From positions 248,001 through 312,000 of the forward strand of contig OZ025707.1 of assembly GCA_964019335.1 (NCBI GenBank): a stretch of 64,000 nt of DNA, read 5' to 3'. The stretch is from Diplonema japonicum. Lineage: Eukaryota; Protista; Euglenozoa: Diplonemea. Within the stretch, counting starts at the first letter, position 1, and the number at the start of each line of letters is the position of its first letter. Position numbers and translations under genes: made by a program. The notes under the pieces were generated by a model, which saw nothing but the letters and a program-made list of their open reading frames with translations, did no database searches and was not told the DNA's origin. This document shows positions 19,360 through 47,830 of this stretch, piece after piece.

Positions 19360-21153
19360 ATGGATCCGTCGGTACTTCAGAAGTACGAGCAAGGGGAGTA
19401 CCTCGGGTCCGGCGGACAGGGGTCGGTGTACAAGGCAGTGAGGAGGGTGGATGGAGATATCTTTGCGATGAAGGTGTTGAAGGCACACACTGAAGAGGAG
19501 CACAGGAAGAACATGGAGGAGGTGCGGCACATGCTGATGCTGCAACACAAGAACCTGGTTCCCTGCCTTGACTTCTTCGAGACGACAAAGCAGCTGGCAA
19601 AGGAATCCCTGGCCAAGGTGTGGCAGCTTCACATCGTGATGCCCCTGTACGGAAAAGGGGACCTCTACTCATACGTCAAAAAGGGGGGACCCCTCTCTCT
19701 GGAGAGAGCGTACACGCTCTTGCGGGAGATGGGAGGGGTCCTTCAGTACATTCACGACAAGGGCTTCATCCACAGGGACGTGAAACCCCAAAACATCATG
19801 GTGTCAGGGAAAGGACCTCTTTCTGCGGCCAGTGTTGTTGGTGGCGGCGGGGGGGAGGCAGAGTTCATACTTGCTGACCTGGGACTGTCGAAGGAGGTGT
19901 CCCCCGGTGAGGAAGCGGACTCCTTGTCAGGCACAAAAATTTACATGGCACCTGACTACTTTAACGACTGCTACACCAACAAAGTAGACATGTGGGCCCT
20001 CGGGGTGACTGTGTGTCACATGTTTCTCCAAGCAGACCTGAGGGATCTCTTTCTGAAGTACCTGCATCTTGACCGTGGGCTTGTGATGAAGAAGCTTCAA
20101 ACCCACCTCCCCCCTGCCCTTCGGAAGGTTGTGTTCCGCCTCCTCTCCACCGACCCTTTGGAACGCCCCAGTGCACTGGAGATGCTGCAGATAGTACCAA
20201 TACCAATGGTTCCTCAGACGCCAAGTATAGTTCTTCTTGCTGTTGGGAGTGTTGGTGGAGAAGAATGGAAAATGAGGCTCCGCGTGGCTGTGGGAGCAGG
20301 AGCGGAGGAGGTTCGTGTGGCGGCAGCAAAGGCCTTCTCTTCTGGTGGGCAGGAACTCCTCAGGGTTCGCAGGTTGGAGGTCTTCGACAAGGACTTCGAG
20401 GAGTTCGTGGTGCAGAAGGACGACGGGGACATCGTGTTCGAGGACAAAGGACGGGTCCGTGTCGTGTTTGAAGCACCGCTCCCAAGCACCACCTCTTCAA
20501 CCACCAGTGTCGGCAGCGACATTCACCCACCTGCTGCGAACAGCACCACCCTCACAACAGAGGAGGGGAGGCTTGCCTTGGTCGGCGCTGTTTCAAAAGG
20601 GGACCTTGAGGAGATGGAACTTGTTCTAAAACGGGGTGTTGACCCTGGTGCAACGGACAGCGATGGTTTCACAGCCCTTCACTATGCAGCTCGCGAAAAC
20701 AACTGTATCGGGGCTGTGGCTGCTCTCGTTTGTTCTTACCACCAGGACCCTGGTGTCAGAAGCAACAACGGTTGGACACCAGTTCATCTAGCAGCATTGA
20801 ACGGCCACTTCGAGACAGTTAAATATCTTGTTGAAACTCTCGGTCAAGACGCAGGTGTGAAAAGCAACGATGGTTGGACACCGCTTCATGCTGCAGCACA
20901 GAACGGCCACTTCGAGACAGTTAAATATCTCGTCGAATCTCTCGGTCAAGACGCAGGTGTCAAAAACAACGACGGTCGCACACCGGTTCATATTGCAGCT
21001 GATAACTGCCACCTCGAGACAATAGAATATCTTGTTGAAACTCTCGGTCAGAACGTAGGTGTGAAAAGCATCGACAGTCGGACACCAGCGATGAAGCAGC
21101 GAAGCAACAAGAAGACATGGTCGTCGTGGCGTGGCACAACATACACGCGCTGA
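19360..21153 (+). CDS. Ser/Thr kinase - ubiquitin-like linker - ankyrin repeat protein, copy 1 (about 5 ANK)
   Basis: GSGGQGSV, AMK, HRDVKPQN, DLG, YMAPD, KVDMWALG; then LEVFDKDFEEFV linker; then GWTPVHLAALNGH repeats. Confidence 0.85.
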   Translation: MDPSVLQKYEQGEYLGSGGQGSVYKAVRRVDGDIFAMKVLKAHTEEEHRKNMEEVRHMLMLQHKNLVPCLDFFETTKQLAKESLAKVWQLHIVMPLYGKGDLYSYVKKGGPLSLERAYTLLREMGGVLQYIHDKGFIHRDVKPQNIMVSGKGPLSAASVVGGGGGEAEFILADLGLSKEVSPGEEADSLSGTKIYMAPDYFNDCYTNKVDMWALGVTVCHMFLQADLRDLFLKYLHLDRGLVMKKLQTHLPPALRKVVFRLLSTDPLERPSALEMLQIVPIPMVPQTPSIVLLAVGSVGGEEWKMRLRVAVGAGAEEVRVAAAKAFSSGGQELLRVRRLEVFDKDFEEFVVQKDDGDIVFEDKGRVRVVFEAPLPSTTSSTTSVGSDIHPPAANSTTLTTEEGRLALVGAVSKGDLEEMELVLKRGVDPGATDSDGFTALHYAARENNCIGAVAALVCSYHQDPGVRSNNGWTPVHLAALNGHFETVKYLVETLGQDAGVKSNDGWTPLHAAAQNGHFETVKYLVESLGQDAGVKNNDGRTPVHIAADNCHLETIEYLVETLGQNVGVKSIDSRTPAMKQRSNKKTWSSWRGTTYTR

Positions 21154-21360
21154 TAACGAGACACATCTTTGTTGAAAAGCAAGTCAATATTTCGAAGACA
21201 CCGGGGGACCTGCCCCTCCGCAACAACTGCTCGATCGGAAGGCGGCTGAGACACTTATGATTTTATCAAGTGTTAATAAATGGGGTTGGGGGGAGGGGGA
21301 CAATTTCTGAGATTATTTTATACCCAGGGTGGTGGGGATAACACAGAAATATAGAATAAA

Positions 21361-21630
21361 GAAGTACATCAGATGTGTTGTTCGCTGTTGACCTCGTCGG
21401 TCATCACCGGTAGCGCCCGAGTGGAAGAACGTATCGCAGATGCTCAGGGTGACGAACAGGCAGCAAACTGCACGGGCTCAGAATCTTGGTTACCAGGGGG
21501 TACCATGGCTGGGGTTGAGTTGCACACCGCACGCATTAAGGACACGACACGGAACGCAGAAGAAGCTACAACTAGGCCGAGGCGCGCCCCCTGTAATCAA
21601 GTAGACGATACTTGTGCAGGGCGCCCTGCC
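21361..21630. repeat. Dispersed non-coding repeat X (other copies at 28694-28912, 36527-36621, 37648-37790)
   Basis: Shared blocks catcagatgtgttgttcgctgttgacctcgtcggtcatcaccggtagcgcccgagt and taaggacacgac..gccccctgtaatcaagtagac. Confidence 0.8.
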
Positions 21631-21756
21631 ACATACTGCAGGCACCCTTAAATAGTCTCTTTTTTGAACGGTGAGCACCCACCCGCACACCGAAATTTAT
21701 CAATTTTTTTTTTTAATTTTTTTGGGGGTTCTTGAATTTGGGTTAAAAGAAATAAA

Positions 21757-24036
21757 ATGACAACATCAACAACATCATCGACGTCCAGTGCGGTGGGAGC
21801 GACCTCCTCGAGGTTGAACCCCGGGCAACGGTGCCACATGGTGGGGGGTGGCAACGGCGAAGGCTTCGGCCGCGGGACGAACGGGGAGGTGGGCAAGGCG
21901 AAGGCCGAGCTCCTGACGAAGCTAGGAAGTGGAGTCTCGATCAGAGACTACTCCAAAACCGAAGGTGAGTGCCTCTACGAGGCGACCTCGGTAGCGATCC
22001 ACCAGGGCACCTCCGCTGGAGGGGCACTGAGGGAGCTGGTGGCCAGCCATCTGGCAGCCACCGACAACAGTGCGCTGTTGTACGCCCCAGAGCGCTACGG
22101 GGAGTACGTGCAAGCGGTGAGGGACGGGGCATGGGGAGACATCTTGCAGCTCCTCGCGGTCAGCCAGGTATGTCGGCGCCACCTGGCCTGCTACCAGGTG
22201 AAGGAAGGGAAGCTGCTGTGCACGTCTTTTGCTGCGCGCAACCCCGTAGTGAGCACCCCCATATACCTGGGGTTCGTAGCCGCTCACTACGTGACGCTGG
22301 AGGTGCGCGAGGGCACGGAGCTCCCGGCGGCGGGGACCTACAACAACCCGAAGGTCCCTATGCCCTACCTGAGCGAGGGGGCGAAGAAGAAGGCGGCTGC
22401 GACCGCAGCTGCAGCCGCGCGGAAGGCCAAGGACGGAGACGGCGAGACGAAGCCGAAGGAAGACGCGGTGCTGGTGGCGAACGGCTGGGAGGCGTTCTCT
22501 GGTGACTGGACGCCGCAGGTGGGCAGGAACAGGTCAGTCCTGCTCGTGCCGGCAGGGATGGAGAAGGAAGCGTCGCTGTGGCTGATGGACGCCGGCGACA
22601 AGGATGGTCCCACCCTGGTGTCCAGAAGCAAGCTCCCCACGATGCAGGGAGAGCAAGAGCAGGTGGTTCTTGCAACCGACGGCGGCAAAGGGAGGTGTGT
22701 CCGCAGGCTATGGGTGACCGCGAAGGGCGGCCCTCCGCTGAAGCAGGTCAAGCAAGCGACGACGGTCCCCGCGGTGGTAAGCTGTACCGCCGAGGTCTAC
22801 CTGGTAGAGAAGACCAAAAAGGACTTCCACAGCGCCAGGAGGGACCTCGTCCGCTGGGCTGCGAGCAAATGCGCAGGACGGGTCGAGCCAAGGTCAGGGT
22901 CAAAGAGGGACGGCTGCGCCGAGCTATGCCTGGTGGTGGCCCGGGCAGACCTGGACACCCTGTACCGACACAGCGGGACCGGTGGGGTCTTTGTGCGCCC
23001 TCCACACCAGTCGACAGGAAAGTTTCCGGTGCTGTGGATCGTAGGAGCCTCGGCTACTGACGTCGCACTCCTCGCGAAGCAAGCGGACGGGCTGGGTGTG
23101 GCCTGGAGCAAGAGCACGGGGGAGTTCGGAATCCGAGTGAAGGCGGAGAAGCTGGAAGAGATGACGGCCTTCCTGCAGAACAGGACGGCGAAGAAGGTGA
23201 AGGACACCCGGCCTACACCGATCAGAGGGACCCCCTACACCGTCAAGGGAATGGGAACGCTGGTCCCGGGGCTGGAGGTGGAGCAGAGGCTGCTCTCGAT
23301 CGGGTGGGCGGCACAAGCGGTACGCGTGCTAGCAAGTGGCAGGAAGACGTGCACGTGGCTGGTTGCGTCGGAGGCTGAACCGCCTGGCCTTCTGTTCGGG
23401 AGCGGCGACGAGCAGTGGGTGATCCGGCCGCATAACGGGGAGGGTGACCTGCTGAAGCACTCCACATGGGGGAGCAGAGGTGGGCCGAGGAAACCGACGC
23501 CAGCCTCTCCACCTGCTGCCAAGAAGAGCACGAAGTCGAATGACTTCCCCCCCCTACGAACCGCCGCGCAGCCTCGACCTGCCAAGCAACCGAAGCAACC
23601 GAAGCGGGACGGCGAAGCTGAGCAGTCGTTCCACTCGTGGTGGCAGGCCAAGGAGGCCGAGTTCGCGGAGAAGGATCGCCGACACGAGGAGACGATGGCG
23701 AAGCTCCATCACGAACAGCAGAGGAGGCAGGCTGACCAGGAGGCCATGTCGAAGGCGCTACGGGACGCACTGAACAAGATTGTCCGGATGCAAGAGGAGC
23801 AGGAGCGAACGCAAGCCCGGCTGATGGAGGTGGAGCAGCAGCTTACCGAGTTGGCGGCGGTTGCGCTGACAAGCAGTGGCAGCAGGAAGAGAACGGCAGG
23901 CGGTGAAGAAAAAGGCGGGAAGGTGTCGAAGTCCGGCGCGAGGTCCACAGCGAGCACCCCCACGCAGATGGCGGTCGACCCGCAGCACCCAACCACCCCG
24001 CTGCTGCTGCCCCAAGGGCCGGCGCAACAACAATAG
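21757..24036 (+). CDS. LINE ORF1 with N-terminal OTU-like cysteine protease and C-terminal coiled coil
   Basis: EGECLY (Cys codon 21970), LRELVASHL, GAWGDILQL, IYLGFVAAHY (His codon 22285); coiled coil EKDRRHEETMAKL..EQQLTEL. Confidence 0.8.
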   Translation: MTTSTTSSTSSAVGATSSRLNPGQRCHMVGGGNGEGFGRGTNGEVGKAKAELLTKLGSGVSIRDYSKTEGECLYEATSVAIHQGTSAGGALRELVASHLAATDNSALLYAPERYGEYVQAVRDGAWGDILQLLAVSQVCRRHLACYQVKEGKLLCTSFAARNPVVSTPIYLGFVAAHYVTLEVREGTELPAAGTYNNPKVPMPYLSEGAKKKAAATAAAAARKAKDGDGETKPKEDAVLVANGWEAFSGDWTPQVGRNRSVLLVPAGMEKEASLWLMDAGDKDGPTLVSRSKLPTMQGEQEQVVLATDGGKGRCVRRLWVTAKGGPPLKQVKQATTVPAVVSCTAEVYLVEKTKKDFHSARRDLVRWAASKCAGRVEPRSGSKRDGCAELCLVVARADLDTLYRHSGTGGVFVRPPHQSTGKFPVLWIVGASATDVALLAKQADGLGVAWSKSTGEFGIRVKAEKLEEMTAFLQNRTAKKVKDTRPTPIRGTPYTVKGMGTLVPGLEVEQRLLSIGWAAQAVRVLASGRKTCTWLVASEAEPPGLLFGSGDEQWVIRPHNGEGDLLKHSTWGSRGGPRKPTPASPPAAKKSTKSNDFPPLRTAAQPRPAKQPKQPKRDGEAEQSFHSWWQAKEAEFAEKDRRHEETMAKLHHEQQRRQADQEAMSKALRDALNKIVRMQEEQERTQARLMEVEQQLTELAAVALTSSGSRKRTAGGEEKGGKVSKSGARSTASTPTQMAVDPQHPTTPLLLPQGPAQQQ

Positions 24037-24045
24037 CAATTACAG
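24031..24045 (+). promoter_or_regulatory. Putative programmed stop-codon readthrough signal CAA-TAG-CAA-TTA-CAG (TMV-type UAG-CARYYA)
   Basis: This is the only stop between the same-frame ORF1 and ORF2, and its context is identical to the tobamovirus leaky stop. Confidence 0.75.
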
Positions 24046-27000
24046 TTGTCGGCAGGGATGAGTGGAGGAAGCGCTAGTGGCCCACCTCTGCTCGATGACG
24101 TGCTCCGGATCACATCGATCAACGTCGGGTCGCTGCACAACAAGCTCCCGCAGGTCCTCGCAACACAAGATGAAATCGTATGCCTGCAGGAGACCAAGCT
24201 CACTGAACACGGTCAGCACCAGCTATCGCAGGCGATCGATGAGGGCGGGTATCACCCCCTATGGGGCCGCGCTCAGGAAGGCATGCCAGACAGAGCAGGG
24301 GTACTCAATCCGAATCTTGGGCAAAGGGGAGGCGTCGCGGTGCTGACAAAGAAAGGCAGACCTGCCATCGTAGCTCCTGCGTCGGGGATCACTGTGCAAC
24401 CGAACAGGTGGCTGCACACCATGATAAACGTGGATGGCCGCGATCTATGGGTCCACGTCATCACGGTGTATTGCAGTGCCGGTTACTACGGGAAGGATGA
24501 CAGGGAGCGACTCCTGCACGCGCTGCTCGTTGACCTGAGGGCTAGGCTTGGGGAGGTGCCGATCCTGATCTTGGGGGATTTGAACACGGACGTTTCCGGG
24601 TCGGCGACGCTGAGGCACGCAGTGGAAAACGACTGGGTCGATGTCGGAGCACTTCAGGCCGAGAAGGACGGAAGGAGACCTGACCACACCTTTGAGCGAC
24701 CCGGGACGGAGACTAAGACGCGGATAGACTTTGTCCTAGCCAACGCAGTGGCTGCCGGGGCGCTGAAACGCTTCTGGACGCACAAGAGGGTAAGGACTGG
24801 GGAGCATCTGTGCCTTTCTGTTGAGCTCTTCACACCGACGCTCAAGAAACGGACAAAGCGGTTTTTCCTCCCGAGGGAACTACCGGTGGGAGCGGTAACG
24901 CCTGACACTGAGCTTGACCAAGAGCTTGCTGACGACGACGTGCTCCGTCATGCTGCCGACAACAGGGACGTGGGAGGCCTCTACACCGTGCTGAGCTGCG
25001 CAACCGAGCGGTACATGCTGTCCGCCGCCGGGGTGACGAATGTGAAGCCGTTCGTAGGCAGGGGGGAACCACGGGAGCTGTCGGAGAAGATGGTGGCGGC
25101 GAAGTCGACTGGGACGTCAGGAGGGGCGGCCGCGCGGGACCAGACGATGCACGGCAACCTGAAGAGGAAGATTCAGGCTCTCAGGATCGGGCTGAACGAG
25201 GCGCTGCTGCGGGGTGGACCAGGAACGCTGCCGGCGATGCTGCATGGGACGTGGAAGAACATCGTGAAGCTGGCCGGGAAGATGCGCCTCGGGGTCGTGC
25301 TGGACGAAGATCTCCTACGGGGACCCAGCCTGGAAGCCGCGCTGGTGGGACTGCAGGAGCTGGAGGCTGCAGCGGACCAGGGTGACATGGAAACGGTGAA
25401 GCAGCAGCGTCTGGAGAACGAGGCAAGATACAGGAAGCGGGTGGCGGCTGATTTCCGTGACGACAGACGGCGTATCGTGGCGTACGTCAAGGGGAACAAG
25501 GAAGCCCACACACTGGCAGTTGCGAAAGAGGACAGTAGGTTGACGGTAGATCTGGAGGAGATCGACGCACTGATGAGGGGGGCGTGGGCCTCTGTCTTCC
25601 ACCTGTACCCGAACAAGAGCGACCGGCCCTCCTACGCTGCCTTCAAGGAGAGGTATGGCAAGTATGTCGACGGGCACCCCATGGAACTGGAACCGATCAC
25701 GGGTGGCGACCTCAGGGAGGTGCTGAACAGTAGGCCGGCGAGAGGAACCCCGGGTGTGGACGGCTGGAGGATCGCGGAGCTGAAGGCTATACCTGACGCG
25801 CTGCTGGAGAGGTGGGCGCAGCTCTTCAACATCATCGAGGAGACCGGCGAATGGCCGGAGGCGCTACTGACGGCACTCGTCTCCCTGATACCCAAGGGTG
25901 AGGACAGATCCCCGCTGAACCATCGGCCGATCACGGTCACCAGCGCTGTGTACAGGCTGTGGGCGACGACGAGGATGAGGCGCATCTTGGTCTGGCAGGA
26001 GTCGTGGGCGCACACGTCACAGCACGGTTTCAGGTCGAGGAGAGGGACGGACACGCTGCTGCTGGAGCTGACGACGCAACTCGAGGAAGCCCTGCTGTCG
26101 GGCACACCGATGCACGGTCTCGCACTGGACTTTGTCAAGTGCTTCGACCGCATCCCGCGGGAGGTGGCACTTGGACTGATGGGGGACCTGGGGCTACATC
26201 AGAACATACTGCGGCCGCTGACGACGATGTACGAGTCCCTCAGGCGGAGGTTCAAGTACCCGACAGGGGTGGGTGACGAGTTCGCCACATCGAACGGCAT
26301 CTTGCAGGGGTGCCCGATCTCGGTGGTGATGGTGAACGCGCTGGTGGGGGTGATGGTGAGGGCGATCATGGCGGAGGTGCCCGGGGCAGATTCCCTGTCG
26401 TACGCAGATGACGTGTACCTGATTGCAGCTCTGCTCAGCGCACTGGAGAAGGCGGCAGCGGGGGTAGGTGAATTCTCTCTGCTAACGGGGATGAGTCTCA
26501 ACCTCAAGAAGACGGACATGTTCTCCACAGAAGGGTCCGGGTCGGTGAAGTGTGGGCGGGAAGTGCTTGCAGCCAAGACGGAGATCAGCGCCCTGGGCAT
26601 CAAGGTTTGCATGGACGGCGAGCACAGGGCCAAGCCCCTTGTGGGAATGGAGCGGGCGTGCGGAAGGCTGGCTGCCATGCCGTTGGGATTCTCACAGAAG
26701 GCAAGGATCATCTCCAGCTCCATCCTCCCCTCTTGCCTCTACGGTGTTGCGTATGCCCCCCCCTCGAAAGTGGATGCAGGCACAATCCGGTCGAGAGTAG
26801 CGACATGCCTCTGGGGACCGAAGTTCAAGATGCGCTCACCGTGTGCTGTAGCGAACATCTTGCTGCCGGGGCACACGACGGACCCGCTGGTGGTGACGCT
26901 TTATCGACTGTTGTGCACGGTGGTGAAGGTTGGTAGGTCGGATGCAGAGCTGTGGGACCGGATGGGAAGGTGTGCCGCCCTGTACCTGCAGAGCGACGTG

Positions 27001-28170
27001 GAGGCCCAGGGACCAGTGGGAACCCTAGTGAGACGATGGCTGCCGGCGGTCGGGAAGAGCTGGAGTTTTGTGGAAGGGCTGCGTACCACGACCGAGCGGG
27101 AACGCAAACACGAGATCCGCCGAGTGGCACGGGCCATGACAGCAGCGGAACAAGCAGAAGGGAGGACCTCCTACAGCGGCATGCCAGAGGGGGCCGACCC
27201 GGTCACGAACGGGTGGTGGAGGGCGCTCGCGAACAACCCGATGGCGGCGTACAGGTTGAGGAGGCTGATTGCTGGGGCGGTGTTTGCGGTGTACCCTGCG
27301 GTGCGGGGAGTGGCGGAGGGGCCGGACAACCCGCTGCAGCACCTCTGTGACGTGTGTGGGGAGCGTTACGGCAGCTACACCGAGGTGCTGGAGCACGCCC
27401 TCTGGCGATGCGAACTCGGAGATGCGGTGCGGGGCAAGGCAGAGTATGCGAGTCTCGACCCAGCGACCATGCCGAACGCGACGACGCTCCACGGGATAGT
27501 GCCCAGGGGATGCCAGGACAAGCCGAGGGCCCTGTTGGTGCAAAGGTACCTGCTGGAGGTGGTCACACTGAGGGATACGGCGGTGGAAGCGAACCGCGCA
27601 TTGCAGACGCAGACATACCCGTGGCGGGTGGTCGTGACGGGAAGGGCACACCCGACGCCGACGGTGGCCGAATTACGTGGGCTGGGAGCATCGGGGAAGG
27701 TGATGGACAGGCTGCTGGGGCCGGTGCTGAGGTGGCTGAGTGGCTTGCTGTGGGATGACGCCCCTGGACGGCACACGACGGTTACGACGCTGGAGCTTGC
27801 CCTCGACTTCGAGCGGGAGACGGAGCTGCCGCTAGACGACGGCGGGGAAGTGGGCAAGGTGGAGGACCTGGGCGTCAAGGCAAGGAGGCTGAGGTATGTG
27901 CTGAGACGTGTCCAGGACCTGTACCACGCTGATGGCAGAAGGACGGCGTTCCCAGCAGCGCGAGTGGATCGCGTCAACTCCCTGCGCTGTATAGGAGGAC
28001 CGACCACACACGGGTATGACAGGAGGCCAGTACTCCCGGAGCGAACCATGAGCAGCATCGAAGGCTTGCGTGACACGTACCTGTCGCAGACCCCGACAAG
28101 GCTGCCCCGCAGTTTTACCACCGCAGTAGGAACCCGCCAGAGCCCCCAGAACGGGGACAACGGGGACTAA
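24037..28170 (+). CDS. LINE ORF2: AP-like endonuclease + reverse transcriptase + C-terminal Zn knuckle (first ATG at 24058)
   Basis: SINVGS, CLQETK, LGDLN, TRIDFV, GEH (APE); PGVDG, RPIT, QHGFR, LDFVKCFD, GILQGCPIS, YADD (RT); CDVC..HALWRC. Confidence 0.92.
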   Translation, partial: QLQLSAGMSGGSASGPPLLDDVLRITSINVGSLHNKLPQVLATQDEIVCLQETKLTEHGQHQLSQAIDEGGYHPLWGRAQEGMPDRAGVLNPNLGQRGGVAVLTKKGRPAIVAPASGITVQPNRWLHTMINVDGRDLWVHVITVYCSAGYYGKDDRERLLHALLVDLRARLGEVPILILGDLNTDVSGSATLRHAVENDWVDVGALQAEKDGRRPDHTFERPGTETKTRIDFVLANAVAAGALKRFWTHKRVRTGEHLCLSVELFTPTLKKRTKRFFLPRELPVGAVTPDTELDQELADDDVLRHAADNRDVGGLYTVLSCATERYMLSAAGVTNVKPFVGRGEPRELSEKMVAAKSTGTSGGAAARDQTMHGNLKRKIQALRIGLNEALLRGGPGTLPAMLHGTWKNIVKLAGKMRLGVVLDEDLLRGPSLEAALVGLQELEAAADQGDMETVKQQRLENEARYRKRVAADFRDDRRRIVAYVKGNKEAHTLAVAKEDSRLTVDLEEIDALMRGAWASVFHLYPNKSDRPSYAAFKERYGKYVDGHPMELEPITGGDLREVLNSRPARGTPGVDGWRIAELKAIPDALLERWAQLFNIIEETGEWPEALLTALVSLIPKGEDRSPLNHRPITVTSAVYRLWATTRMRRILVWQESWAHTSQHGFRSRRGTDTLLLELTTQLEEALLSGTPMHGLALDFVKCFDRIPREVALGLMGDLGLHQNILRPLTTMYESLRRRFKYPTGVGDEFATSNGILQGCPISVVMVNALVGVMVRAIMAEVPGADSLSYADDVYLIAALLSALEKAAAGVGEFSLLTGMSLNLKKTDMFSTEGSGSVKCGREVLAAKTEISALGIKVCMDGEHRAKPLVGMERACGRLAAMPLGFSQKARIISSSILPSCLYGVAYAPPSKVDAGTIRSRVATCLWGPKFKMRSPCAVANILLPGHTTDPLVVTLYRLLCTVVKVGRSDAELWDRMGRCAALYLQSDVEAQGPVGTLVRRWLPAVGKSWSFVEGLRTTTERERKHEIRRVARAMTAAEQAEGRTSYSGMPEGADPVTNGWWRALANNPMAAYRLRRLIAGAVFAVYPAVRGVAEGPDNPLQHLCDVCGERYGSYTEVLEHALWRCELGDAVRGKAEYASLDPATMPNATTLHGIVPRGCQDKPRALLVQRYLLEVVTLRDTAVEANRALQTQTYPWRVVVTGRAHPTPTVAELRGLGASGKVMDRLLGPVLRWLSGLLWDDAPGRHTTVTTLELALDFERETELPLDDGGEVGKVEDLGVKARRLRYVLRRVQDLYHADGRRTAFPAARVDRVNSLRCIGGPTTHGYDRRPVLPERTMSSIEGLRDTYLSQTPTRLPRSFTTAVGTRQSPQNGDNGD

Positions 28171-28255
28171 GAACAGCGCGGCCGGTGAGCGCAAAAACGC
28201 ATACCTTAAAAGAATAGTTTTTTATCTGATAGTTCAGAAATTTCTTCACTCCTAA

Positions 28256-28375
28256 CCCCCCCTATAATCTGATTACCCCCCTCTCATAATTTGATAATCC
28301 GGGCTATAATTTGATAGCTCAATTATGGGCAGGACTTTGGTGTTTATGGCCCGTGACTGCCAAATTATAGGGGGG
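28256..28375. repeat. Short inverted-repeat (MITE-like) element
   Basis: ccccctataatctg at the left pairs with caaattataggggg at the right; internal ataatttgata repeats. Confidence 0.35.
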
Positions 28376-28423
28376 AATGTGACATTATTGGGGGCAGAGT
28401 GAAATTCTTGGGCTCAAGATCAT

Positions 28424-28457
<34 letters not shown>

Positions 28458-29025
28458 ATCAAATGCCGAAAACGAAGAAGGAAGAGAGTCTTCTACACAT
28501 TACCTGAAAACATGGGCTGACTTTCAGCTGCTTTGCACCAAAAAGCAGAAACTGGCCATGGACAAGTTGCTGTCTCCAGTAAAAAAAAAAAAAAACTTTC
28601 TCATAGTTATCGATGTCGTTTCCTCCCTTCCCGACCGGGGAGCCAGATGGTGGGGATAATATGAACTTAAGAATTGCATTAACTTAAGAAAAACATCAGA
28701 TGTGTTGTTCGCTGTTGACCTCGTCGGTCATCACCGGTAGCGCCCGAGTAAACATCGTGACGAACACGCGCCGAATCTTGGTTACCCGGGACGCCCCGGC
28801 TGGGGTTAAGCTGTACCGCACGCATTAAGGACACGACGCGGAACGCAGAAGAAGCTACAACTCGGCCGCGGTGCGCCCCCTGTAATCAAGTAGACAATTC
28901 TTGTGCAGGGCGTCGCCAACACCCTTTTAACTTTTATAAAAATATTTTTCTATAATACATAATCTCGTTTTCCGAGTTCCAATCCCCAACACAGTCTACC
29001 TAAACAACAACAACAACAACAAAAT

Positions 29026-32000
29026 ATGGATCCGTCGGTACTTCAGAAGTACGAGCAAGGGGAGTACCTCGGGTCCGGCGGACAGGGGTCGGTGTACAAG
29101 GCAGTGAGGAGGGTGGATGGAGATATCTTTGCGATGAAGGTGTTGAAGGCACACACTGAAGAGGAGCACAGGAAGAACATGGAGGAGGTGCTGCACATGC
29201 TGATGCTGCAACACAAGAACCTGGTCCCCTGCCTTGACTTCTTCGAGACGACAAAGCAGCTGGCAAAGGAATCCCTGGCCAAGGTGTGGCAGCTTCACAT
29301 CGTGATGCCCCTGTACGGAAAAGGGGACCTCTACTCATTCGTCAAAAAGGGGGGACCCCTCCCTCCGGAGTGGGCATACAGGCTCTTAAGCGAGATGGGA
29401 GGGGTCCTTCAGTACATTCACGACAAGGGCTTCATCCACAGGGACGTGAAACCCCAACACATCATGGTGTCGGGGAGGGGACCTCTTTCTGCGGCCAGTG
29501 TTGTTGGTGGCGGTGGGGGGGAGGCAGAGTTCATACTTGCTGACCTGGGACTGTCGAAGGAGGTGTCCCCCGGTGGGGTAGCGAATTCCATAGCAGGCAC
29601 ACCCGCTTACATGGCACCTGACTACTTTAACGACTGCTCACCCGGCTACACCAACAAAGTAGACATGTGGGCCCTCGGGGTGACTGTGTGTCACGTGGTG
29701 CTCCAAGCAGACCTGAGGGATCTCTTTCTGAAGTACCTGCAACATAACCGGGAGCTTGTAATGGAAAACTTTCAAACCCACCTCCCCCCTGCCCTCTGGG
29801 AAATTGTGTTCCGCCTCTTCTCCACCGACCCTTTGAAACGCCCCAGTGCACTGGAGATGCTGCAGATGGTTCCTCAGAATCCGACTGGTATAGTGGGGGG
29901 AATTGTTCTTCTTGCTGTTGGGAGTGTTGGTGGAGAAGAACGGAAAATGAAGCTCTGCGTGGCTGTGGGAGCAGGAGCGGAGGAGGTTCGTGTGGCGGCA
30001 GCAAAGGCCTTCTCTTCTGGTGGGCAGGAACTCCTCAGGGTTCGCAGGTTGGAGGTCTTCGACAAGGACTTCGAGGAGTTCGTGGAGCAGGACGACGGGG
30101 ACATCGTGTTCGAGGACAAAGGACGGGTCCGTGTCGTGTTTGAAGTACCGCTCCCAAGCACCACCTCTTCAACCACCAGTGTCGGCAGCGACATTTACCC
30201 ACCTGCTGCGAACAACACCACCCTCACAAAAGAGGAGGGGAGGCTTGCCTTCGTCAGCGCTGTTTCAAAAGGGGACCTTGAGGAGATGAGGGAACTTGTT
30301 CTAAAACGGGGTGTTGACCCTGGTGCAACGGACAGCGATGGTTTCACAGCCCTTCACTATGCAGCTCGCGAAAAAATCCGTATCGAGGCTGAGGTTCTCG
30401 TCTGTTCTTACAACCTGAACCCTGGTGTCAGAAGCAACGATGGTTGGACACCGGTTCATTCTGCAGCTTTCAACGGACGGCTCGAGACAGTTAAATATTT
30501 TGTTGAAACCCTCGGTCAAGACGCAGGTGTGAAAAGCAACGATGGTTGGACACCGGTTCATCAAGCAGCAGAGAACGGCCATCTCGAGACTGTTACATAT
30601 CTTGTCGAAACTCGCGGTCAAGACGCAGGTGTCAAAAACAACGACGGTAGGACACCGCTTGATCTAGCAGTACAGAACGGCCACCTCGCGATAGTTAAAT
30701 ATATTGTTGAAACTCTCGGTCAGGACGCAGGTGTCAGATGCAACGACGGTTTTACACCGATTCATGCTGCAGCAGAGTACGGCCAGCTCGAGACACTTAA
30801 ATATCTTGTTGAAACTCTCGGTCACAACGCGGGTGTGAAAAGCAACGACGATTGGACACCGGTTCATGCTGCTGCACAGAACGGACACCTCGTGACAATT
30901 ATGTATCTTGTCGAAACTCGTGGTCACGACGCAGGTGTCAAAAACAACGACGGTAGGACACCAATTCATCAGGCTTCATTAAACGGCCACCTCGAGACTG
31001 TTAAGTATCTTGCTGAAACTCGTGGTCACGATATAAGTGTCAAAAGCAACAATGGTTGGACACCGGTTCATGCTGCAGCAGAGAACGGCCACCTTGAGAC
31101 ATTTAAATATCTTGTTGAAACTCGCAGCCACGACGCAGGTGTCAAATGCAACGACGGTTTGACACCGATTCATGCTGCAGCAGAGTACGGCCACTTGGCG
31201 ACAGTTAAATATCTTGTCGAAACTCTCAGTCAGGACGCAGGTATTAGAAGCAACGACGGTTGGACACCGATTCATGCTGCAGCAGAGAACGGCCACCTCG
31301 AGACAGTTAAATATCTTGTAGAAACTCTCGGTCAGGACGCAAGTGTGAAATGTAACGACGGTTGGACACCGGTTCATGCTGCAGCAGAGAACGGCCACCT
31401 CGAGACAATTATGTATCTTGCAACTTGCGGTCAGGACGCAAGTGTCAAATGCAGTAACGGTTTGACAACGGTTCATGCTGCAGTACAGAACGGCCACCTC
31501 GAAACAGTTAAATATCTTGTTGAAACTCTCGGTCAGGACGCAGGTGTGAAATGTAACGACGGTTGGACACCTATTCATCAGGCTGCATTAAACGACGATC
31601 TCGAGGTAGTTAAGTATCTTGCTGAAACTCTCGGTCAAAACGCAGGTGTCAAAAGCAACGACGGTTGGACACCGATACATCAGGCCGCATTCAACGGCCA
31701 CCTCGAGACAGTTAAATATCTCGTTGAAACCAGCGGTCAAGCCCCAGGTGTCAAAAGCTGCTGCGGTCAGACACCGGTTCGCATAGCAGCCGAGAATGGC
31801 CACCTCGAGACGGTTAAATACCTTGTTGAATCTCGCGGTCAAGCTGCAGGCGTGAAATGCGACCACGGTTTTACACCGATACATCAAGCTGCATTGAACG
31901 GCCACCTTGAGACAGTTAAATATCTCGCTGAAACTCGCGGTCAAGATGCAGGTGTGAAAAGCTGCACCGGTCGGACACCGGTTCATCAAGCAGCAGAGAA

Positions 32001-32337
32001 CGGCCACCTCGAGACACTTAAATATCTTGTTGAAACTCTCAGTCAGGAAGCAGGTGTCAAATGCCCCGACGGTTGGACACCGGTTCATGCTGCTGCACAG
32101 AACGGCCACCTGGAGACAGTTAAGTATCTTGTTGAAACTCGCGGACAAGCTCCAGGCGCGAAAAGCAGCGACGGTCGCACACCGGTTCATGTTGCAGCCG
32201 ATAATTGCCAGCTCGAGACTGTTAAATATCTAATTGAAACTCTCGGTCACGACGCAGTCAAATACAACGACGGTCGGACACCAGCGACGGACAGAAAAAA
32301 GGAAAGCCTCCAAACGAACTTTCCCCCATCCCGATAA
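29026..32337 (+). CDS. Kinase - ubiquitin-like - ankyrin protein, copy 2 (about 20 ANK; catalytic loop Asn->His)
   Basis: Paralogue of 19360 with the same 5' leader; HRDVKPQH; long array of 34-aa ankyrin units. Confidence 0.85.
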   Translation: MDPSVLQKYEQGEYLGSGGQGSVYKAVRRVDGDIFAMKVLKAHTEEEHRKNMEEVLHMLMLQHKNLVPCLDFFETTKQLAKESLAKVWQLHIVMPLYGKGDLYSFVKKGGPLPPEWAYRLLSEMGGVLQYIHDKGFIHRDVKPQHIMVSGRGPLSAASVVGGGGGEAEFILADLGLSKEVSPGGVANSIAGTPAYMAPDYFNDCSPGYTNKVDMWALGVTVCHVVLQADLRDLFLKYLQHNRELVMENFQTHLPPALWEIVFRLFSTDPLKRPSALEMLQMVPQNPTGIVGGIVLLAVGSVGGEERKMKLCVAVGAGAEEVRVAAAKAFSSGGQELLRVRRLEVFDKDFEEFVEQDDGDIVFEDKGRVRVVFEVPLPSTTSSTTSVGSDIYPPAANNTTLTKEEGRLAFVSAVSKGDLEEMRELVLKRGVDPGATDSDGFTALHYAAREKIRIEAEVLVCSYNLNPGVRSNDGWTPVHSAAFNGRLETVKYFVETLGQDAGVKSNDGWTPVHQAAENGHLETVTYLVETRGQDAGVKNNDGRTPLDLAVQNGHLAIVKYIVETLGQDAGVRCNDGFTPIHAAAEYGQLETLKYLVETLGHNAGVKSNDDWTPVHAAAQNGHLVTIMYLVETRGHDAGVKNNDGRTPIHQASLNGHLETVKYLAETRGHDISVKSNNGWTPVHAAAENGHLETFKYLVETRSHDAGVKCNDGLTPIHAAAEYGHLATVKYLVETLSQDAGIRSNDGWTPIHAAAENGHLETVKYLVETLGQDASVKCNDGWTPVHAAAENGHLETIMYLATCGQDASVKCSNGLTTVHAAVQNGHLETVKYLVETLGQDAGVKCNDGWTPIHQAALNDDLEVVKYLAETLGQNAGVKSNDGWTPIHQAAFNGHLETVKYLVETSGQAPGVKSCCGQTPVRIAAENGHLETVKYLVESRGQAAGVKCDHGFTPIHQAALNGHLETVKYLAETRGQDAGVKSCTGRTPVHQAAENGHLETLKYLVETLSQEAGVKCPDGWTPVHAAAQNGHLETVKYLVETRGQAPGAKSSDGRTPVHVAADNCQLETVKYLIETLGHDAVKYNDGRTPATDRKKESLQTNFPPSR
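30420..32290 (+). repeat. Tandem ~102-bp ankyrin-coding repeat array
   Basis: Recurring unit ggttggacaccggttcatgctgcagcagagaacggccacctcgagacagttaaatatcttgttgaaactctcggtcaagacgcaggtgt. Confidence 0.9.
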
Positions 32338-36514: not shown

Positions 36515-38399
36515 CCGCAGCCCGTCCTGGCTAGGGTTAAGCTGCACACTTTAAGGACACGACGCGGAACGCGGAAGAAGCTACAGCTCGGCCGCGGTGC
36601 GCCCCCTGTAATCAAGTAGACAGCTCATGCTTCGCTGCACACTTAACGCCACTTGGTGTTGCAATCAAAGCCCCGTATTTTTCTCTTTTTTTTTTTTTTT
36701 CTTCTTCTCCTTTCTCGTTCCTCCCTGTGTTTTTTCTTTAATCAGAATGGTGCGACTGCTCAGATAACGTGCACGGGACCTCAAGCTAGTTTTATGGTAA
36801 AATGAATATGTTGAGACGGTTCGTACGAACCCCTACAGACCCTGTTGAGTGTTTGTACGCATGCCGCACTGAATATACGTACCTACCTTACCAATGAATA
36901 TACGTAAAAATATCATAAATACAAGTTATAGAACCTCTTTGCACGCCCCAGCACACATTCTTTAAGCAACGTTTTATCTTCCCTGCCCTCCCCCCTTTTT
37001 TTTTGGACACTTCTTAACACACTTCCATTGGCTCCACTCAGCCACCCCCCCCCCTCTTTTTGTCTTTTCTGTTTATCCCCCCCCTTTTTTTCAAAATGTC
37101 AACATAAACACACAGGACGGGGGGTGAATGGGTGGGTGACAGCGCGGCTGTGACACGGTTGTTCGAGTCGGGGTATTCCCGTAACTGGACTACGAGCGGC
37201 ATTCTCTCAAAAACTTCTGTTTGGTATGATTCCTTTTCCGTGGCAGGTGGCGCTTTAGGTGGCCGAAAAGAAAGCACGATCCCCTCCTATCCCGGGGAAA
37301 CCCTTCTTGACATCCTCCCTCCGATCCATTGGTGCAAACAAACGGGTCCGAGGAGGGTATTCCTGCAGACCTACATTCGCATCGTACGACAAGGTGCGCT
37401 TCATCCTTGAACAGCGACTCGCAACCGGCTCACTGGGGAGGGACGACTGGGACAACAAGTTCGTGCCGACTATTTTGAATCTACCCGAAGAATCCCCACC
37501 CCATCTGCCGATAAAGATGCAGCGACGCAGAAGTAACAACACAAGATAGACCCTCCACCATGCTGCACACTTAACGCCAAATAGTGTTGCAGCCAAAGCC
37601 CCATTTTTCTTTCCTTTTCTTGAGGTGGTGGATAACATGGAAATATAAGAAGTACATCAGATGTGTTGTTCGCTGTTGACCTCCTCGTCGGTCATCACCG
37701 GTAGCGCCCGAGTGGAAGAACGTATTGCAGATGCTCAGGGTGACGAACAGGCAGCAAACTGCACGAGCGCAGAATCTTGGTTACCCAGGACGCCCTGGAG
37801 TCGGGGTATTCCCGTAACTCACGGCTGATCCGATCAAGAGCCCCGCATCTGTCCAGGTCCCCGTTATGGGGACCCGGTCCATGCAGTTGGACTCTCTTAT
37901 TTAACTAGTTAAATTATGGCCGTTTCGCGTTAAATTATGAGGCCCCTAGTGAGTGAAGAAAATGACGAAGAGTGAAATAAAAAAAAAAAAAAGGCCATTA
38001 GCCAACTGTGGAAAGAGAATACCCATGTCACAAAAGGTGCTAGAACAATAACACAGGCCGACACGAAAGCACGAACGTCTCAACACACTTCCGTTGGCTC
38101 CACACAGCCCAGCTGGGTGGGGTCGGTCTGGCTAGACCGAATTAAAAAAAAAAAAAAAAAAAAGAGTGCCCTGCAACCGAAGCGGCGAGGGCGAAGCACT
38201 CTTCGACACCCTGTCACTGAAGCACGTCCTAGTGGAAGAACCCCGAAAGACGATCCTGTTTCTCGCCGAAACAGAGATGCAACCCCCCACCACGGCAGCC
38301 GACCGAACAGACGCAGCAGTGTGAAGAAAATAGAAAACCCCCCAACGAACTTTTCCCCACCCCATAACGTGATCAAAAAAAAAAAAAAAAATAACTATT

Positions 38400-39734: not shown

Positions 39735-40180
39735 ATCCACCTCTCTCGTTTCTTTTTTATTTATTAGGACCGCGATGACGATGTAGTTGTGGGTCCGGTT
39801 GGGATCCTACGAAACAGGTGCCCACCTTTCTGGAGAACGGATGGTTTTTTTGATGCACTCGTTCTTCGTCGCGTCCCAGTGGCCTCCCGCAGTCCGGCGG
39901 TTCAGAGGCTGGCAACGGTCCTGCGAGCAGACGCTGCTGTAGCGTTCCACGAGCAGCAATCGCAAGCCTTGCAGTCTGCCTGACGGTACGCGAGCAGCAA
40001 CAGCAGCGACACCAACACCAGGGGCGCTCGAATGCCAAACAGGACCCCAGCAGCAACACTACTACGTCCCCTTCGAACCCCAACAACACCCCCACCAGAT
40101 CTACTGCTCCCTCGATACGGCTGAACGACGACGGGGAGCTGTCGATCCAGGCTACTGGGTCCAACTACAAGTCCCTGTGT

Positions 40181-43100
40181 ATGAAGATCACCGCGATGTG
40201 TGCACACCCCGATGTGCTGAACTACGACTTCACTACCTGGGCCCCCAAGACCGTCTTCAGGTACCTGAACTTCCTGAGACGTTACTTCGTCGGGAACTTC
40301 TTCACCGCCAAGATCGCGGCTATCGAACGAGGCCTCACCAACCGCCTCAGCCCTGCCCTCTTGAAAAAGGTGGTCCGCCGAGACGAAGGCTTCGTGTGGT
40401 TCAAAACGAGTTTTGACCACAAGGCCAAGGAGATGATCCTCTGGCGTAAGGTCTTCGAGGACAAGGAGGTAATTGCGGCATGCCCCAAGCCAGCCCTCCT
40501 TCGCAGAGTACACATGTGCAACAAGCTTGGTCAAACCCTCAAGGCCACAGTGTGCAATGTGACGAAGCTCAGCATCGAGACCCCGCGTCCAGAAGCGGCC
40601 GAGCCTACAACAAACTGCCCTTGCTCGAAGCGCAAGACCTCACACACACATGAGGGACACGCCTGCGGACTAGCAGCAGAGGTCATCGATGACGACGAAG
40701 TGAAGGAGGTTCTGAACAGAAGCATGAAGTTCCGCCTCTCAACACACGCCCTCCTCTCTTCCCAAAGTCTCGAGGAGGACATCAACGGGTTCATCACTCA
40801 GAACTTTCGGAGATCCCCTGCAGTGAAAAAGGATTCCTTCCGGAAGGTCCTCCTCGCCAAGGCACAGAACCTTCTCCACCCCCACACTCAGTCTCCGGTC
40901 TTCGACCCCTCAGTCCCGGAGTTCATCAAGACAAAGCTCCGGAAACTTCAGGAGGTCTACGTTTTCCTCCCCATAGACAAAAGCACCCACGACATTGGCG
41001 TCTGTTGCAAGGATCGCCCCTTTTTATCTATTTCTTCGCTTCTTCATCCTAACTTAAAACCATTTCAGCTACCTCAGGATCCTGCACCAACAGCTTGATA
41101 GCCAAGCTTTCGAGCCGGTCTCGAAGCCCTTGGACTCGATCTTCTCCGAAATAGCTGATCAAGCCAAGACCTTCAACCTCGATTCCACACGTCGCATGCC
41201 ATACCTGTACGGTACCCTGAAGCTACACAAAGACAAAGTGGGCGTCAGGTGGATCTCTGGTGTCTCCTCCACTGATGCACCCCCTGTGGACCAACCAGCA
41301 GCGGTCAGCACGCAGGAAATTATGGAGAACTTGGTCGCAGCAGGCGGCGATACAACGGGCAATAAAGCTAAGAAACCCACAGCTGCCACCACGGCCCTCC
41401 ATCTAGAACTGTCTTCCCTCCTGAAGGCTGTCCAACGCGCGCTGCTGGACAAGGATCTGGAGGGCAGGTCCAAGACCCACGGTCCCGACGGTATCCGACT
41501 AAAGCGGTACTGGATCGTCGACTCGGCCGAGAACGTAGCTGCGGATATCAAGCAGCAGTACACGGCTTACAAAAGCCTGTCCCCTGCCACGTACGACTTC
41601 CGGGACATGTACACCAACCTCGACCAAGAGCGTCTGAAAGAGGGGGTTCGTAAAGCAGTCCAAGAAGCGTTCGACTTCACCGGCAAGAACCTCACCCGTG
41701 GCAAGGACGGGAGCTCCTTCACAGATGCCGACGAGGACGATGTCTACACCCCGGAACGGATCCATAAGCTCCTGGACCTCGTCGTTGACAACACCTATGT
41801 TGTGCAGGGTGGCCGCGCCGTTCGTCAAGTAAAGGGTATCCCCATGGGTGGGAACGCCTCCCCCGACCTGGCGAACCTGTTCTGCTACGCCGTGGAGGCC
41901 GCATACATCGACAAGCTCCTCGCCGAAGAGGACTGGGAGACCTTGAAACGCTACTGCAACGCGTGTCGCTACATCGACGACTTCCTGTTGTGGAGCACTG
42001 CGCCACCCCCGGAGGAGCTTTATGGCATGGCTTATGTAAAGACCTCTTCAGACCCATGCGACGTCCCCTTTATCGGGATTCGCATCCGGATAGAGCGCCA
42101 CGAACAAGCTAAGCACAACTATATTAGACTTAGCATTAACGATAAGGCGCAGAACTGGCGCTTCCGGCCTACGCGGTTCACCCACGGGCACACCGCGGCG
42201 CCCACCACCCAGGGACCAGGCATCTTCAAGGGCATGGTCATCCGTGCCTGCGCCCTGACCAACAACATCGCGGACCTCAAACGGGAGATCGCTTCAGTGA
42301 TCTACCTGCTCCTAGATCGCGGTCACGACAAGGGCGGCCTGCGGAAAGCGTACAACGCCTTCCTTATCGAACGCGTGGATCGACGCTTCGCCATGGAGAA
42401 AAGCAACCTGCTGGCCTTCTTCACGCAAGTCCTCCACCGATACGACGCCAAAGCCCCGGTAGATTCTTGGTTGCCGGAAAAAACGTACATAGGCCCCAAG
42501 AAACCCCGTGCGCTTCCCACGGACGACTCCTCGGACGACTCCTCAGCTGACTCCTCAGTCGTCTCCTCAGTCGCCTTCTCGGGGGGCCCCTCAGACGAGC
42601 CCTCGGACAGTTCCTCGGACAGCTCTTCAGGTCTTGTCGAACCGTCACAACCCCGAGCAGCCTCCGTGGTCTCACCATCTGGTGTCACGGACCAGGTTTT
42701 TTCGCCCCCCATCAACCTGCACACCAACAGCGGGGAAGGTCGCCTGGGCCTGGAATGCGGCTGGGCCGTCATAAACTGGTTGGCGGACTATGCTGGTGTG
42801 GACCGCATCCCCTTCTCTACAATGCAGGAGATCCAGGAGATGTACCACGGCTTCTCACGACTCATCTCCCCTTCCAGCACTGATGAAGCGCCCGATCCTC
42901 TTGGCAACTTTTCCCGCTCGACCTTGTCACGTGCTTGCCTCATGGTCGTTGGTGCAAACTTGGAGGTCTTCCGTGCGGGCATGAAAGAAAGCCCCTGCTT
43001 GATCGTTGGTCCCTTGAAACGAAGTCTCAGCGGCCACTGGTTCATCGCTCTCAGGAAGAAGGGAAGGTACATGGTCAAAGACACCGACGTACGGCTAAGG

Positions 43101-45350
43101 CTCCAGAGCTTCAAACACATCTGCGCGACATACTCCGAACACAACATCCTCTGCATCCCAGACGATGTGTGGGCCAGGACAACCCCAGGCAGGAAACACA
43201 ACACACGTGTTCTAGACCCTGAGGCTGAGTTTCGCCAGTTTGGGCCGGTCATCACCCCGGCGGCACCCCAGGTAAGCGACTCGAGCGCGCGAAAGACTGA
43301 GACCGCTCTCAACACCCCGGAAGATCGCACCCTCCTAACTTATGTCACCCTAGCTGCAGCTATAGCTACATATGCCGCACGCACCCGACGGCTCGACACA
43401 GGAGTCGCCGCATCAGGTGTGGATGCGCACACCGCTCACTTCGGGCGGCCCGTCGCCACCGCCATCGTAGCCCTAGCTGCCGCCGTGGCCGCGCGAGCCG
43501 TGCACACCGGATGCTCTGTCACCACCACGTCTACGGCAAGCCAGACTAACGTGTTCGGAACTGTCCCGCTCTTCCTGAAGGTCTCGAGTCTGCACAAGTC
43601 TACACCACAGACAGCAGTCGCAACCTGTCAGACGGACCGTGTCACAGCACCTGTACTGTTCTCGATATCATCGACGCTCCAGACGGATCCTCCCAGCAGT
43701 AGACTGCCCCCGATGGACGCCGGACTGGGGTCGCCCTCGGCCGCGGCGGTCAGACTTACGAAGTCTGTCGAAATTCCGACGCCCCGCGCGACCCTGTCGA
43801 GGCGGCTGGTTACTGAGCCTCGGTTGACACCATGCCTTCCACCGCCAACGGACGTGTCATCCACCCAGCTCGCGGCCTGCACTCAGTCCACCCGTCGGGA
43901 CACCGGACACGGGAGTGACACACCGATGCCGTCGTCTACCATGGGACACGCGACACTCCAACCAGTGGTCGGCTCCCAGATTGTGACAACGTCGGCTGTG
44001 GAGTCATCGCTCGCCCGAGCCGTGACAACGCCCGTTCTGGCAGACGCCCCCCTCGGCGCCCGCCAAGTACAGCTCACTCCTTGCATCCAGTCCGTCCATG
44101 AGAACATCGGACTCGGGATGGATACGCCGATGGCTCCCGCCATGGGACACACAACGCTTCAACCGGTGGTCAACGCCCAGAGAGACACGACGCTGACCCT
44201 GGAGCCGCCCGTGGCCCGAGCCGAGGCAGACGCTCCCCTAGACCCTCACCAGGCGGATGGTGGTTTAGAAATGATCGACCTCACGCAGGACTCCCCGGAC
44301 AGACCCTCGCGCAAGAAGAAGCACGACGGCACTGCTTACGAGCACGAAAGCCGTCGTGGTAAGAGTTCCTCCACAGGCGATGGGGATCTTCTCATCCTGC
44401 GCGAGCAGTCACAGGGTTTTGATCAGAAAGCCCTCAACCGAAGGGCCCTCCAGAGACGGATGGATCGATACCTCAGTCTCTTGGTCTACTTCCGGCGACA
44501 CCCGGAGCTCTTGGACGAACACCAGCGTCAGCTCCTGTCGGTCGGTCCCCTCCCGATGCACCTGGACACCTCTCCACATCAACTGCTGCTCGAGGCCCGT
44601 GACACGGATAGAACTGCCGACCAACAGGCAACCGTCGCCAACCAGGAACAGCTTCTTCTGATTGCGCACAAGGCGTTGCCTACCACCGAACGTCTTCGGT
44701 TGTCTCACGAATGGCACTCGGGGCTGAACACCGCGGTACAGCAACAGTGGTGGTCGGAGTTCTTCGCCCAAGGCGGCTGGAAACACCCACTCTTCGGTTC
44801 CGAGGCCCCAAGAGGTGACGAGACTAGGACTCCAGGGAGGACCCCTCTCCTGCTCACCTACAACGGGCAGAGGAACAAACGCCCGGAACCCGAAGACGGC
44901 CCCGCCCTTCCCGCGGCCAAACGGGATCTCGCCGCGACGAGGCCGAACACCAGAGTCACTGGACTTGTCGCCCTTAAGAGGCTCACCAGGGAAGCAGACG
45001 TCGACGGCCCTGAGGACCTGGATGAGCTTCGACACCTGGGCTTCCTTTCCCAGGGCGAGGCCGTCTTTGACCTCAGCTGCATGTCCGGGGCTTGCACACA
45101 CTTCCTGGGTGAGACCCCCATGGTCACGGTCCCCCTCGACACACGCGTCGCGATCCCGTGTCTGCTGGTCTGTTATGACTCGACGTGGCTCTACGCTTCC
45201 CGCCAGGAACAGGGCTTTCGGTTGCAGACCCAAGGGTTCAAGGACAAGTCGTATCCGACTGTGGCAGCCCTACTCGCTGACTTCGTGGGGGCAGGGACCC
45301 TCTACTACAGCGAGTCACAGTGGTCGACTGTGCTGAACTCCTACAACTAG
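40181..45350 (+). CDS. PLE polyprotein (N-terminal domain - RT - Josephin-like protease - low-complexity linker - degenerate second Josephin-like unit), interrupted by a 52-bp insert at 41017-41068
   Basis: Removing 41017-41068 gives in-frame ..DIGVCCKDRYLRILHQQL.. The frame stays open upstream to about 39853 without an ATG, so the true start is uncertain. Confidence 0.75.
41017..41068 (+). repeat. 52-bp exact copy of the PLE 3' terminus (45785-45836), splice-acceptor-like
   Basis: cccctttttatctatttcttcgcttcttcatcctaacttaaaaccatttcag is identical at both sites. Confidence 0.9.
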
Positions 45351-47596: not shown

Positions 47597-47830
47597 AACT
47601 CTACATTTCTTTTTTTTAAGCCGAGGTTTCGTGGGATAATGGCGTAGACCTCGTTTCTTGGAACTACAACACCACCCGTCTTCCGTTGGGCAACTTCGTA
47701 AGTGCTGGCGCTTTTTCGCTTGAGTTATATAAAATGTTTTTTTTTTTCTTTCCCCTCCCCTTTCTTCTTTTAATGCTTCAACAACTAAAAAAAAACTACA
47801 CCTCCAGGCAGTCTCCCACCCCTCCCCCTC

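Follow-up and report, generated by a model that had tools for sequence, protein, structure and literature searches.

The LINE retrotransposon described here probably makes its ORF2 endonuclease–reverse transcriptase (RT) as a minor ORF1–ORF2 fusion, by readthrough of the UAG codon that ends ORF1, and we put the probability of this reading at about 0.65. The element lies on the forward strand of a 64,000-nt stretch of the Diplonema japonicum genome (contig OZ025707.1, positions 248,001 to 312,000; hereafter the window) and, judged from its sequence, it is an intact two-ORF LINE of the APE type. Readthrough is preferred because the stop is common to other copies and to a second subfamily of the element.

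A type I readthrough context between ORF1 and ORF2

The window sequence reads CAA TAG CAA TTA CAG at 24031-24045 (+), an in-frame stop followed directly by CAR YYA, which is the type I (TMV) readthrough context. ORF1 (21757-24036) and ORF2 (24037-28170) share one frame and are separated by this single stop; 1377 codons are open 3′ of it, and an ORF1–ORF2 fusion would comprise 2137 aa. The identity with the TMV readthrough site extends over 16 nt, from −4 to +12 relative to the U of the stop (TMV site as given in PMC13517186). The first-pass annotation, made from the letters of the window, had claimed both the single stop in one frame and the match to the TMV signal CAA-UAG-CAA-UUA-CAG, and the coordinates, the open codons and the 16-nt identity bear these claims out. 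It was also right that an ATG at 24058 could permit re-initiation: this ATG is in frame and opens the sequence MSGG (24058-24069, +), with which the ORF2 of the sister family P0004 (46% identical) starts as well. Between the stop and this first ORF2 ATG lie seven open codons encoding QLQLSAG (24037-24057, +), whose frame and Leu are kept in one diverged contig. No stable RNA fold was predicted 3′ of the stop (z 0.66). The ORF2 ATG overlaps a TGA of the +1 frame (ATGA, 24058-24061), an overlap of stop and start as found at re-initiation sites, but ORF1 is read in another frame.

Taken by itself, the 9-mer TAGCARYYA shows no enrichment over the window (1 seen vs 1.65 expected). CARYYA would follow the stop directly with a probability of about 1/780 on base composition, 1/1450 on the codon use of the element, and 1/51 once the first codon is credited to the local CAA repeat, all of these being single-element figures uncorrected for the many LINE junctions that a scan meets. 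The improbability falls to this last value because the CAA run at the junction looks like the CAA-rich leaders of the host genes at 19360 and 29026. GC3 of the element is near 0.77; TTA makes up 2 of its 227 Leu codons, one of the two sitting in the motif, CAATTA occurs a single time in its 6414 nt, and CARYYA is found in frame at 2 of the 2137 codons. The excess over chance is the placement of CARYYA at the ORF1 stop, not the frequency of the 9-mer. Some such cases are expected in a scan of many LINEs, and conservation therefore weighs more. The junction feature is real, and it is likely to be selected.

Architecture and genomic setting of the element

ORF1 (21757-24036, +) encodes a 759-aa protein with an OTU-like protease domain, a middle domain, a coiled coil and a Gln run at its end, and it is 99% and 83% identical to ORFs from Diplonema japonicum transcripts (EukProt). 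The OTU-like domain (aa 68-160; Pfam OTU, E 1.2e-6) is accompanied by the retained residues Cys72 and His177, and the Cys and His are invariant in all six aligned sequences; by this catalytic pair, ORF1 is predicted to carry an OTU cysteine protease. The middle domain is common to the relative P0043 (26% over 320 aa, E 9e-20), and the coiled coil (aa 621-707), modelled as a helix, is the only confident part of an ORF1 structure model with an overall pLDDT of 37.5, for which the ESM Atlas matches were all below 0.85 and served as leads only.

Upstream of ORF1, a U-rich tract with an AG (21704-21749, +; 18 T in 20 nt, AG at 21748) is the likely acceptor of spliced-leader (SL) trans-splicing, and essentially all D. 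papillatum mRNAs are SL trans-spliced (PMC10161547). An HDV-like ribozyme fold is predicted at 21328-21464 (+; P1 7/7 pairs, P3 3/3, P4 hairpin −10.8 kcal/mol) by a descriptor written after the sequence was seen; it is possibly the 5′ hallmark of the LINE, a link that we infer. In L1Tc/ingi, an HDV-like fold likewise lies upstream (PMC4035085). The pairings at 21328-21464 fit such a fold, but the L3 loop is 3 nt shorter than in the copy at 37624, no Rfam family matched, and this ribozyme-like copy may be inactive.

The predicted fold (P1 7 bp, P3 3 bp, P4, bulged P2) opens a dispersed repeat, found at 21328-21623, 28646-28912, 37624-37785 and 36523-36622. The copy at 37624 has the full 8-nt loop, those at 21328 and 28646 lack 3 nt, and that at 36523 consists of the 3′ part only. 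The repeat resembles the Pr77 hallmark and the short elements SIDER/RIME of trypanosomatids (PMC4035085); the loose, after-the-fact HDV descriptor matched one site in the window, and 3 of 20 shuffles gave one match.

In ORF2, Pfam identified an APE endonuclease domain (Exo_endo_phos, E 1.7e-11) at 24118-24747 (+), followed in the same ORF by an RT domain (RVT_1, E 2e-18) at 25891-26604 (+). Further on, before the ORF2 end at 28170, comes a C-x2-C ... H-x4-C motif (27346-27411, +), which we take to be zinc-knuckle-like and whose four residues are common to P0004. The 3′ UTR and a 32-nt poly(A) (28425-28456), together at 28171-28456 (+), likely form the 3′ end of the element; A-runs are common in this genome. 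No target-site duplication, sought as a match of at least 7 nt, was found between the post-poly(A) sequence and 21101-21760, the 5′ end being uncertain. There was no long terminal repeat among the listed repeats, no Pfam match to RNase H in the element and no 2A motif.

The Pfam-identified long ORFs of the window are all on the + strand, as expected of polycistronic, trans-spliced diplonemid genes (PMC10161547). On either side of the LINE lies one of two paralogous kinase-ankyrin genes (19360-21153 and 29026-32337, +); a 300-nt stretch at their 5′ ends, which lie 9666 nt apart, is 99% identical, and both have CAA-repeat leaders. A third ankyrin-repeat piece was seen at 45743-46270. A second RT element (39854-45350, +), presumably Penelope-like by its motifs, has two overlapping ORFs, of 414 and 1430 codons, together with a weak RVT_1 match (E 1.8e-4) and a long low-complexity tail; near 41010-41080 a pyrimidine tract plus AG, repeated at 45780-45840, breaks into it. 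At 47789-48988 (+), this eukaryote carries a gene with a response-regulator receiver domain (Pfam E 1.9e-13).

The junction in other copies and in relatives

Three of the four D. japonicum transcript-derived ORF1 proteins terminate at the Gln run; P0011, which is 83% identical to ORF1, also ends there, two Gln longer. The fourth protein is frameshifted upstream and its tail is the +1 frame of the window across the junction, which excludes a G at 24034 but not a C. Among 18 listed runs none was an RNA run carrying the sequence, which says nothing about expression. Contigs of four sequencing runs were compared over 23400-24700, with cover in three of the runs. At least three contigs bridge the stop, and among those listed two of three keep T24034 and one reads GAG. 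The first T24034 contig shows 55 differences in 498 letters with a net in-frame gap. The second has two extra CAA codons before the stop and CTT GTG in place of TTG TCG after the motif, with frame and Leu preserved; a 5-nt deletion at 24109 makes it possible that this copy is dead. Both were assigned to the second subfamily because their loose ends translate like P0011. The GAG contig carries 22 differences; of the 15 listed, six lie at the stop or beyond it, and five of these six are transversions that change an amino acid, one of them turning Ile into Asn in SINVG, the first endonuclease motif. By contrast, the ORF2 differences listed elsewhere are mostly synonymous. This contig looks like a decayed copy, but as a single case it could also mean that sense alleles exist.

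Supportively, 13 of the 15 ORF2 differences between runs were synonymous among the rows listed, which argues that ORF2 is under selection behind the junction stop, and so were seven of nine differences among the rows listed for the ORF1 set. As in a LINE, several diverged copies are thus under purifying selection, and two subfamilies occur in transcripts. No difference was seen at 24035-24045 among the contig differences listed (there are 152 further rows), and the hexamer is likely to be intact in the diverged subfamily. The compared sequences indicate that the stop is not copy-specific, being common to other copies and to a subfamily 17% diverged in protein. On the sharing of frame and TAG-CARYYA by the copies, which the first-pass annotation had named as a check, the stop position was kept in three of four proteins and two of three listed contigs, and the one GAG contig departs from it. 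Among the 757-2410-aa proteins searched, neither a fused ORF1–ORF2 form nor an ORF2 belonging to the 99%-identical transcript family was found, and 3287 candidates yielded no short protein around the junction. In viral contigs, 35 pattern matches were obtained, none of them related. Forty metagenome loci considered as distant relatives were rejected, the matches being weak (E 3e-6 or worse), confined to the endonuclease part and likely due to bacterial exonuclease III genes.

A phmmer search with ORF1 and the endonuclease returned 255 matches, the best 150 of which were listed; among 149 listed relatives tested, 148 match the endonuclease. Scoring for 2A was done on the 85 relatives that have the endonuclease start and at least 15 residues upstream of it, and upstream of APE a strict 2A-like motif was found in nine, an RxGEAxxPG variant in 23 and neither in 53. 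OTU and APE are joined in one ORF in six of the 22 proteins scanned, and in P0043, a one-member cluster that ends inside APE, the ORF1-like region runs in frame into APE without a stop. The RT tree comprised 31 rows, that is, the 30 of 42 RT matches that were long enough and the window, with no named reference clades. In it P0004 is the sister family (support 100/99), and the next-nearest rows are three 2A-bearing elements and one OTU-APE element, on a backbone that the tree did not resolve. N-terminal cargo and recoding at the junction position are, as predicted from these proteins, usual in the lineage.

The 2A-like GD(V/I)xxNPGP or the RxGEAxxPG sequence, a putative variant, stands just before the endonuclease in P0018, P0019, P0021, P0023-P0026, P0033, P0035 and others, and the carriers include LINE families of D. 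japonicum and D. ambulator. OTU-like domains with Cys and His kept recur N-terminally in ORF1 or ORF2 (P0015, P0017, P0020, P0032, P0050, P0086, P0100).

A wider reading, which we regard as speculative and rather doubtful, is that the lineage has one virus-like polyprotein frame that swaps recoding modules before the endonuclease (2A StopGo, no break, leaky UAG), that the fusion would be the sole route to the RT, and that the element's own OTU may cut near LSAG-MSGG. The OTU-APE, 2A and RT-tree results support the swapping of modules; for OTU cleavage there is little beyond the conservation of MSGG, and no GG motif was shared by the six OTU-APE linkers. OTU-like proteases of tymoviruses process the polyprotein (PMC3744425).

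Probable readthrough, its alternatives and known systems

For readthrough, the proposed course is that one capped mRNA, to which the SL is added at the AG near 21748, would be translated from the ATG at 21757. Most ribosomes would terminate at the UAG and release ORF1p, and a few per cent would insert a near-cognate residue there (if TMV is a guide, Tyr or Gln) and go on to the 2137-aa OTU-ORF1-APE-RT protein, the outcome being a high ORF1p:RT ratio and an RT bound up with its own RNP. AUG 24058 may in addition serve for some re-initiation. To our knowledge, no readthrough assay exists in Euglenozoa. The type I signal requires no downstream structure and is active in plants, mammals and yeast (PMC13517186, PMC2754532). 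An in-frame stop alone need not leak, as the Tca2 junction, which is without the type I context, did not leak in yeast (PMC2194720). That the endonuclease of relatives appears to tolerate N-terminal cargo counts for a readthrough fusion. The first-pass claim that a leaky UAG yields ORF1p and a small fusion fraction is thus backed by the anatomy, the TMV match and the shared stop, and the MSGG of the sister family, which favours re-initiation, tells against it.

Ribosomes could instead terminate, cross the 21-nt spacer, which is CAA-rich and unstructured, and start again at AUG 24058, giving a free 1370-aa ORF2p, with any leak incidental. We judge this route unlikely, though far from negligible. 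It is kept alive by the MSGG start, which recurs in the 46%-identical sister family; this suggests that the start codon is in use and counts against readthrough; CAA-rich leaders in host genes and the +1-frame TGA overlapping ATG 24058 point the same way, and re-initiation is the tested route for SART1 and has been proposed for mammalian L1 (PMC5972666). It leaves unexplained, however, why the type I hexamer is exact and includes the Leu codon that the element uses least, and why frame and Leu are kept in the spacer of one contig; ATG 24058 is preceded by GGG, whereas most other scored starts in the window, themselves guessed, are preceded by A-rich sequence. We consider it very unlikely that the stop is a nonsense mutation in what was once a single ORF, or that a CAA microsatellite has produced the TMV-like context by accident. 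One contig does read GAG, relatives with a single ORF exist and the 9-mer is not enriched in the window, but the stop occurs in transcripts and in a subfamily whose protein differs by 17%, the 13 of 15 listed synonymous ORF2 differences bespeak selection behind it, and the GAG contig looks decayed.

ORF2 might also be carried on an mRNA of its own, produced as in host genes by SL trans-splicing, here at an AG lying after the stop and before the ATG. Diplonemids transcribe their genes polycistronically and trans-splice them (PMC10161547), and AGs are available at 24035, 24044 and 24054; however, the 40 nt before the junction AGs hold 4-6 T vs 23 before the ORF1 AG. The best count of T per 20 nt within 200 nt upstream is 6 for ORF2, the same as the median for the interior of the element, against 18 for ORF1 and 9-19 for host starts (nine of nine). 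As no U-tract precedes ORF2, a separate trans-spliced mRNA is disfavoured; we consider it very unlikely, and readthrough or re-initiation therefore remain. The flanking Gln codons could suggest a reassigned code, with UAG translated everywhere in the host, but TAG is an ordinary stop in the window: three other long ORFs end in TAG, and the frame stays open for just 5, 27 and 32 codons beyond it, and in one of the three a Pfam domain ends just before the TAG. Reassignment was rejected as effectively excluded. The tRNA search of the window found none.

Readthrough would give the element a likeness to the TMV replicase of tobamoviruses, with the same signal UAG CAR YYA, an abundant upstream protein, an in-frame downstream polymerase and no downstream structure; it differs in being a non-LTR retrotransposon of a protist with an in-frame AUG 21 nt on, known here from sequence alone. 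Group 3 LINEs of Paramecium tetraurelia are, like this element, APE-type LINEs whose ORF1 and ORF2 are joined by an in-frame stop. In Paramecium, UAG codes for Gln, and the stop there therefore cannot be the type I UAG signal. It lies between ORF1 and ORF2 in 12 of 12 families (PMC5405496, Table S3), and readthrough was proposed from consensus sequences (PMC5405496); these elements differ in their ciliate clade and short zinc-finger ORF1s, and neither an OTU nor an assay is noted in the accessible text.

That LINEs recode by 2A immediately before the endonuclease is established, and in the APE LINEs L1Tc, Ingi, CR1, L2 and Rex1 it has been argued to limit ORF2p (PMC3708506, PMC3894237). The present element would share with them virus-like recoding just upstream of APE, and its near relatives carry 2A-like motifs; in contrast, 2A separates the products, mostly with loss of ORF1, whereas this element retains a full ORF1, and its product by readthrough would be a fusion. 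Trypanosomatid INGI is an APE-RT-RNase H element with a 77-nt hallmark (PMC12278014). The description of Ingi/L1Tc as a single ORF with 2A before APE and with RNase H does not fit our element, in which ORF1 is separate and neither a 2A motif nor an RNase H match was found.

SIRE1, Tca2 and MuLV likewise have two ORFs separated by a stop alone, and the stop context of SIRE1 is CARYYA. SIRE1 uses stop suppression (PMC2829016). All three differ as LTR elements with the stop at pol-env or gag-pol junctions, and MuLV needs a pseudoknot (PMC2194720, PMC2829016). SART1 and mammalian L1 also combine a bicistronic LINE RNA with low ORF2p output (PMC5972666, PMC5009743), and differ in relying on an overlapping stop-start or a 63-nt spacer with re-initiation rather than on an open frame with a leaky-stop context.

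Within a literature search that left most subscription papers, Repbase and nearly all supplements outside its scope, no LINE with a type I UAG-CAA-UUA signal and no paper combining CARYYA, readthrough and a retrotransposon was found; the work found on CAR YYA variants used plant reporters, and no title listed concerned readthrough in a diplonemid retrotransposon. The earlier suggestion that virus-like stoichiometry control is new to non-LTR elements was overstated, since the Paramecium readthrough proposal and LINE 2A precede it. What appears new is the type I signal at a LINE junction, no such signal being shown in the accessible parts of the Paramecium and 2A papers.

The route to ORF2p from bicistronic LINE RNAs is still debated, the tested cases being re-initiation and 2A skipping, and in the literature covered LINE readthrough has only been proposed, from the Paramecium consensus sequences (PMC5405496). 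The signal at this junction is the best-characterised portable readthrough signal. If the readthrough reading is true, the element would be a LINE whose RT acts as, or is cut from, an ORF1 fusion, and the type I signal would work in Euglenozoa. It would also be a further convergence between retrotransposons and RNA viruses, in a lineage whose neighbours place 2A at the same spot.
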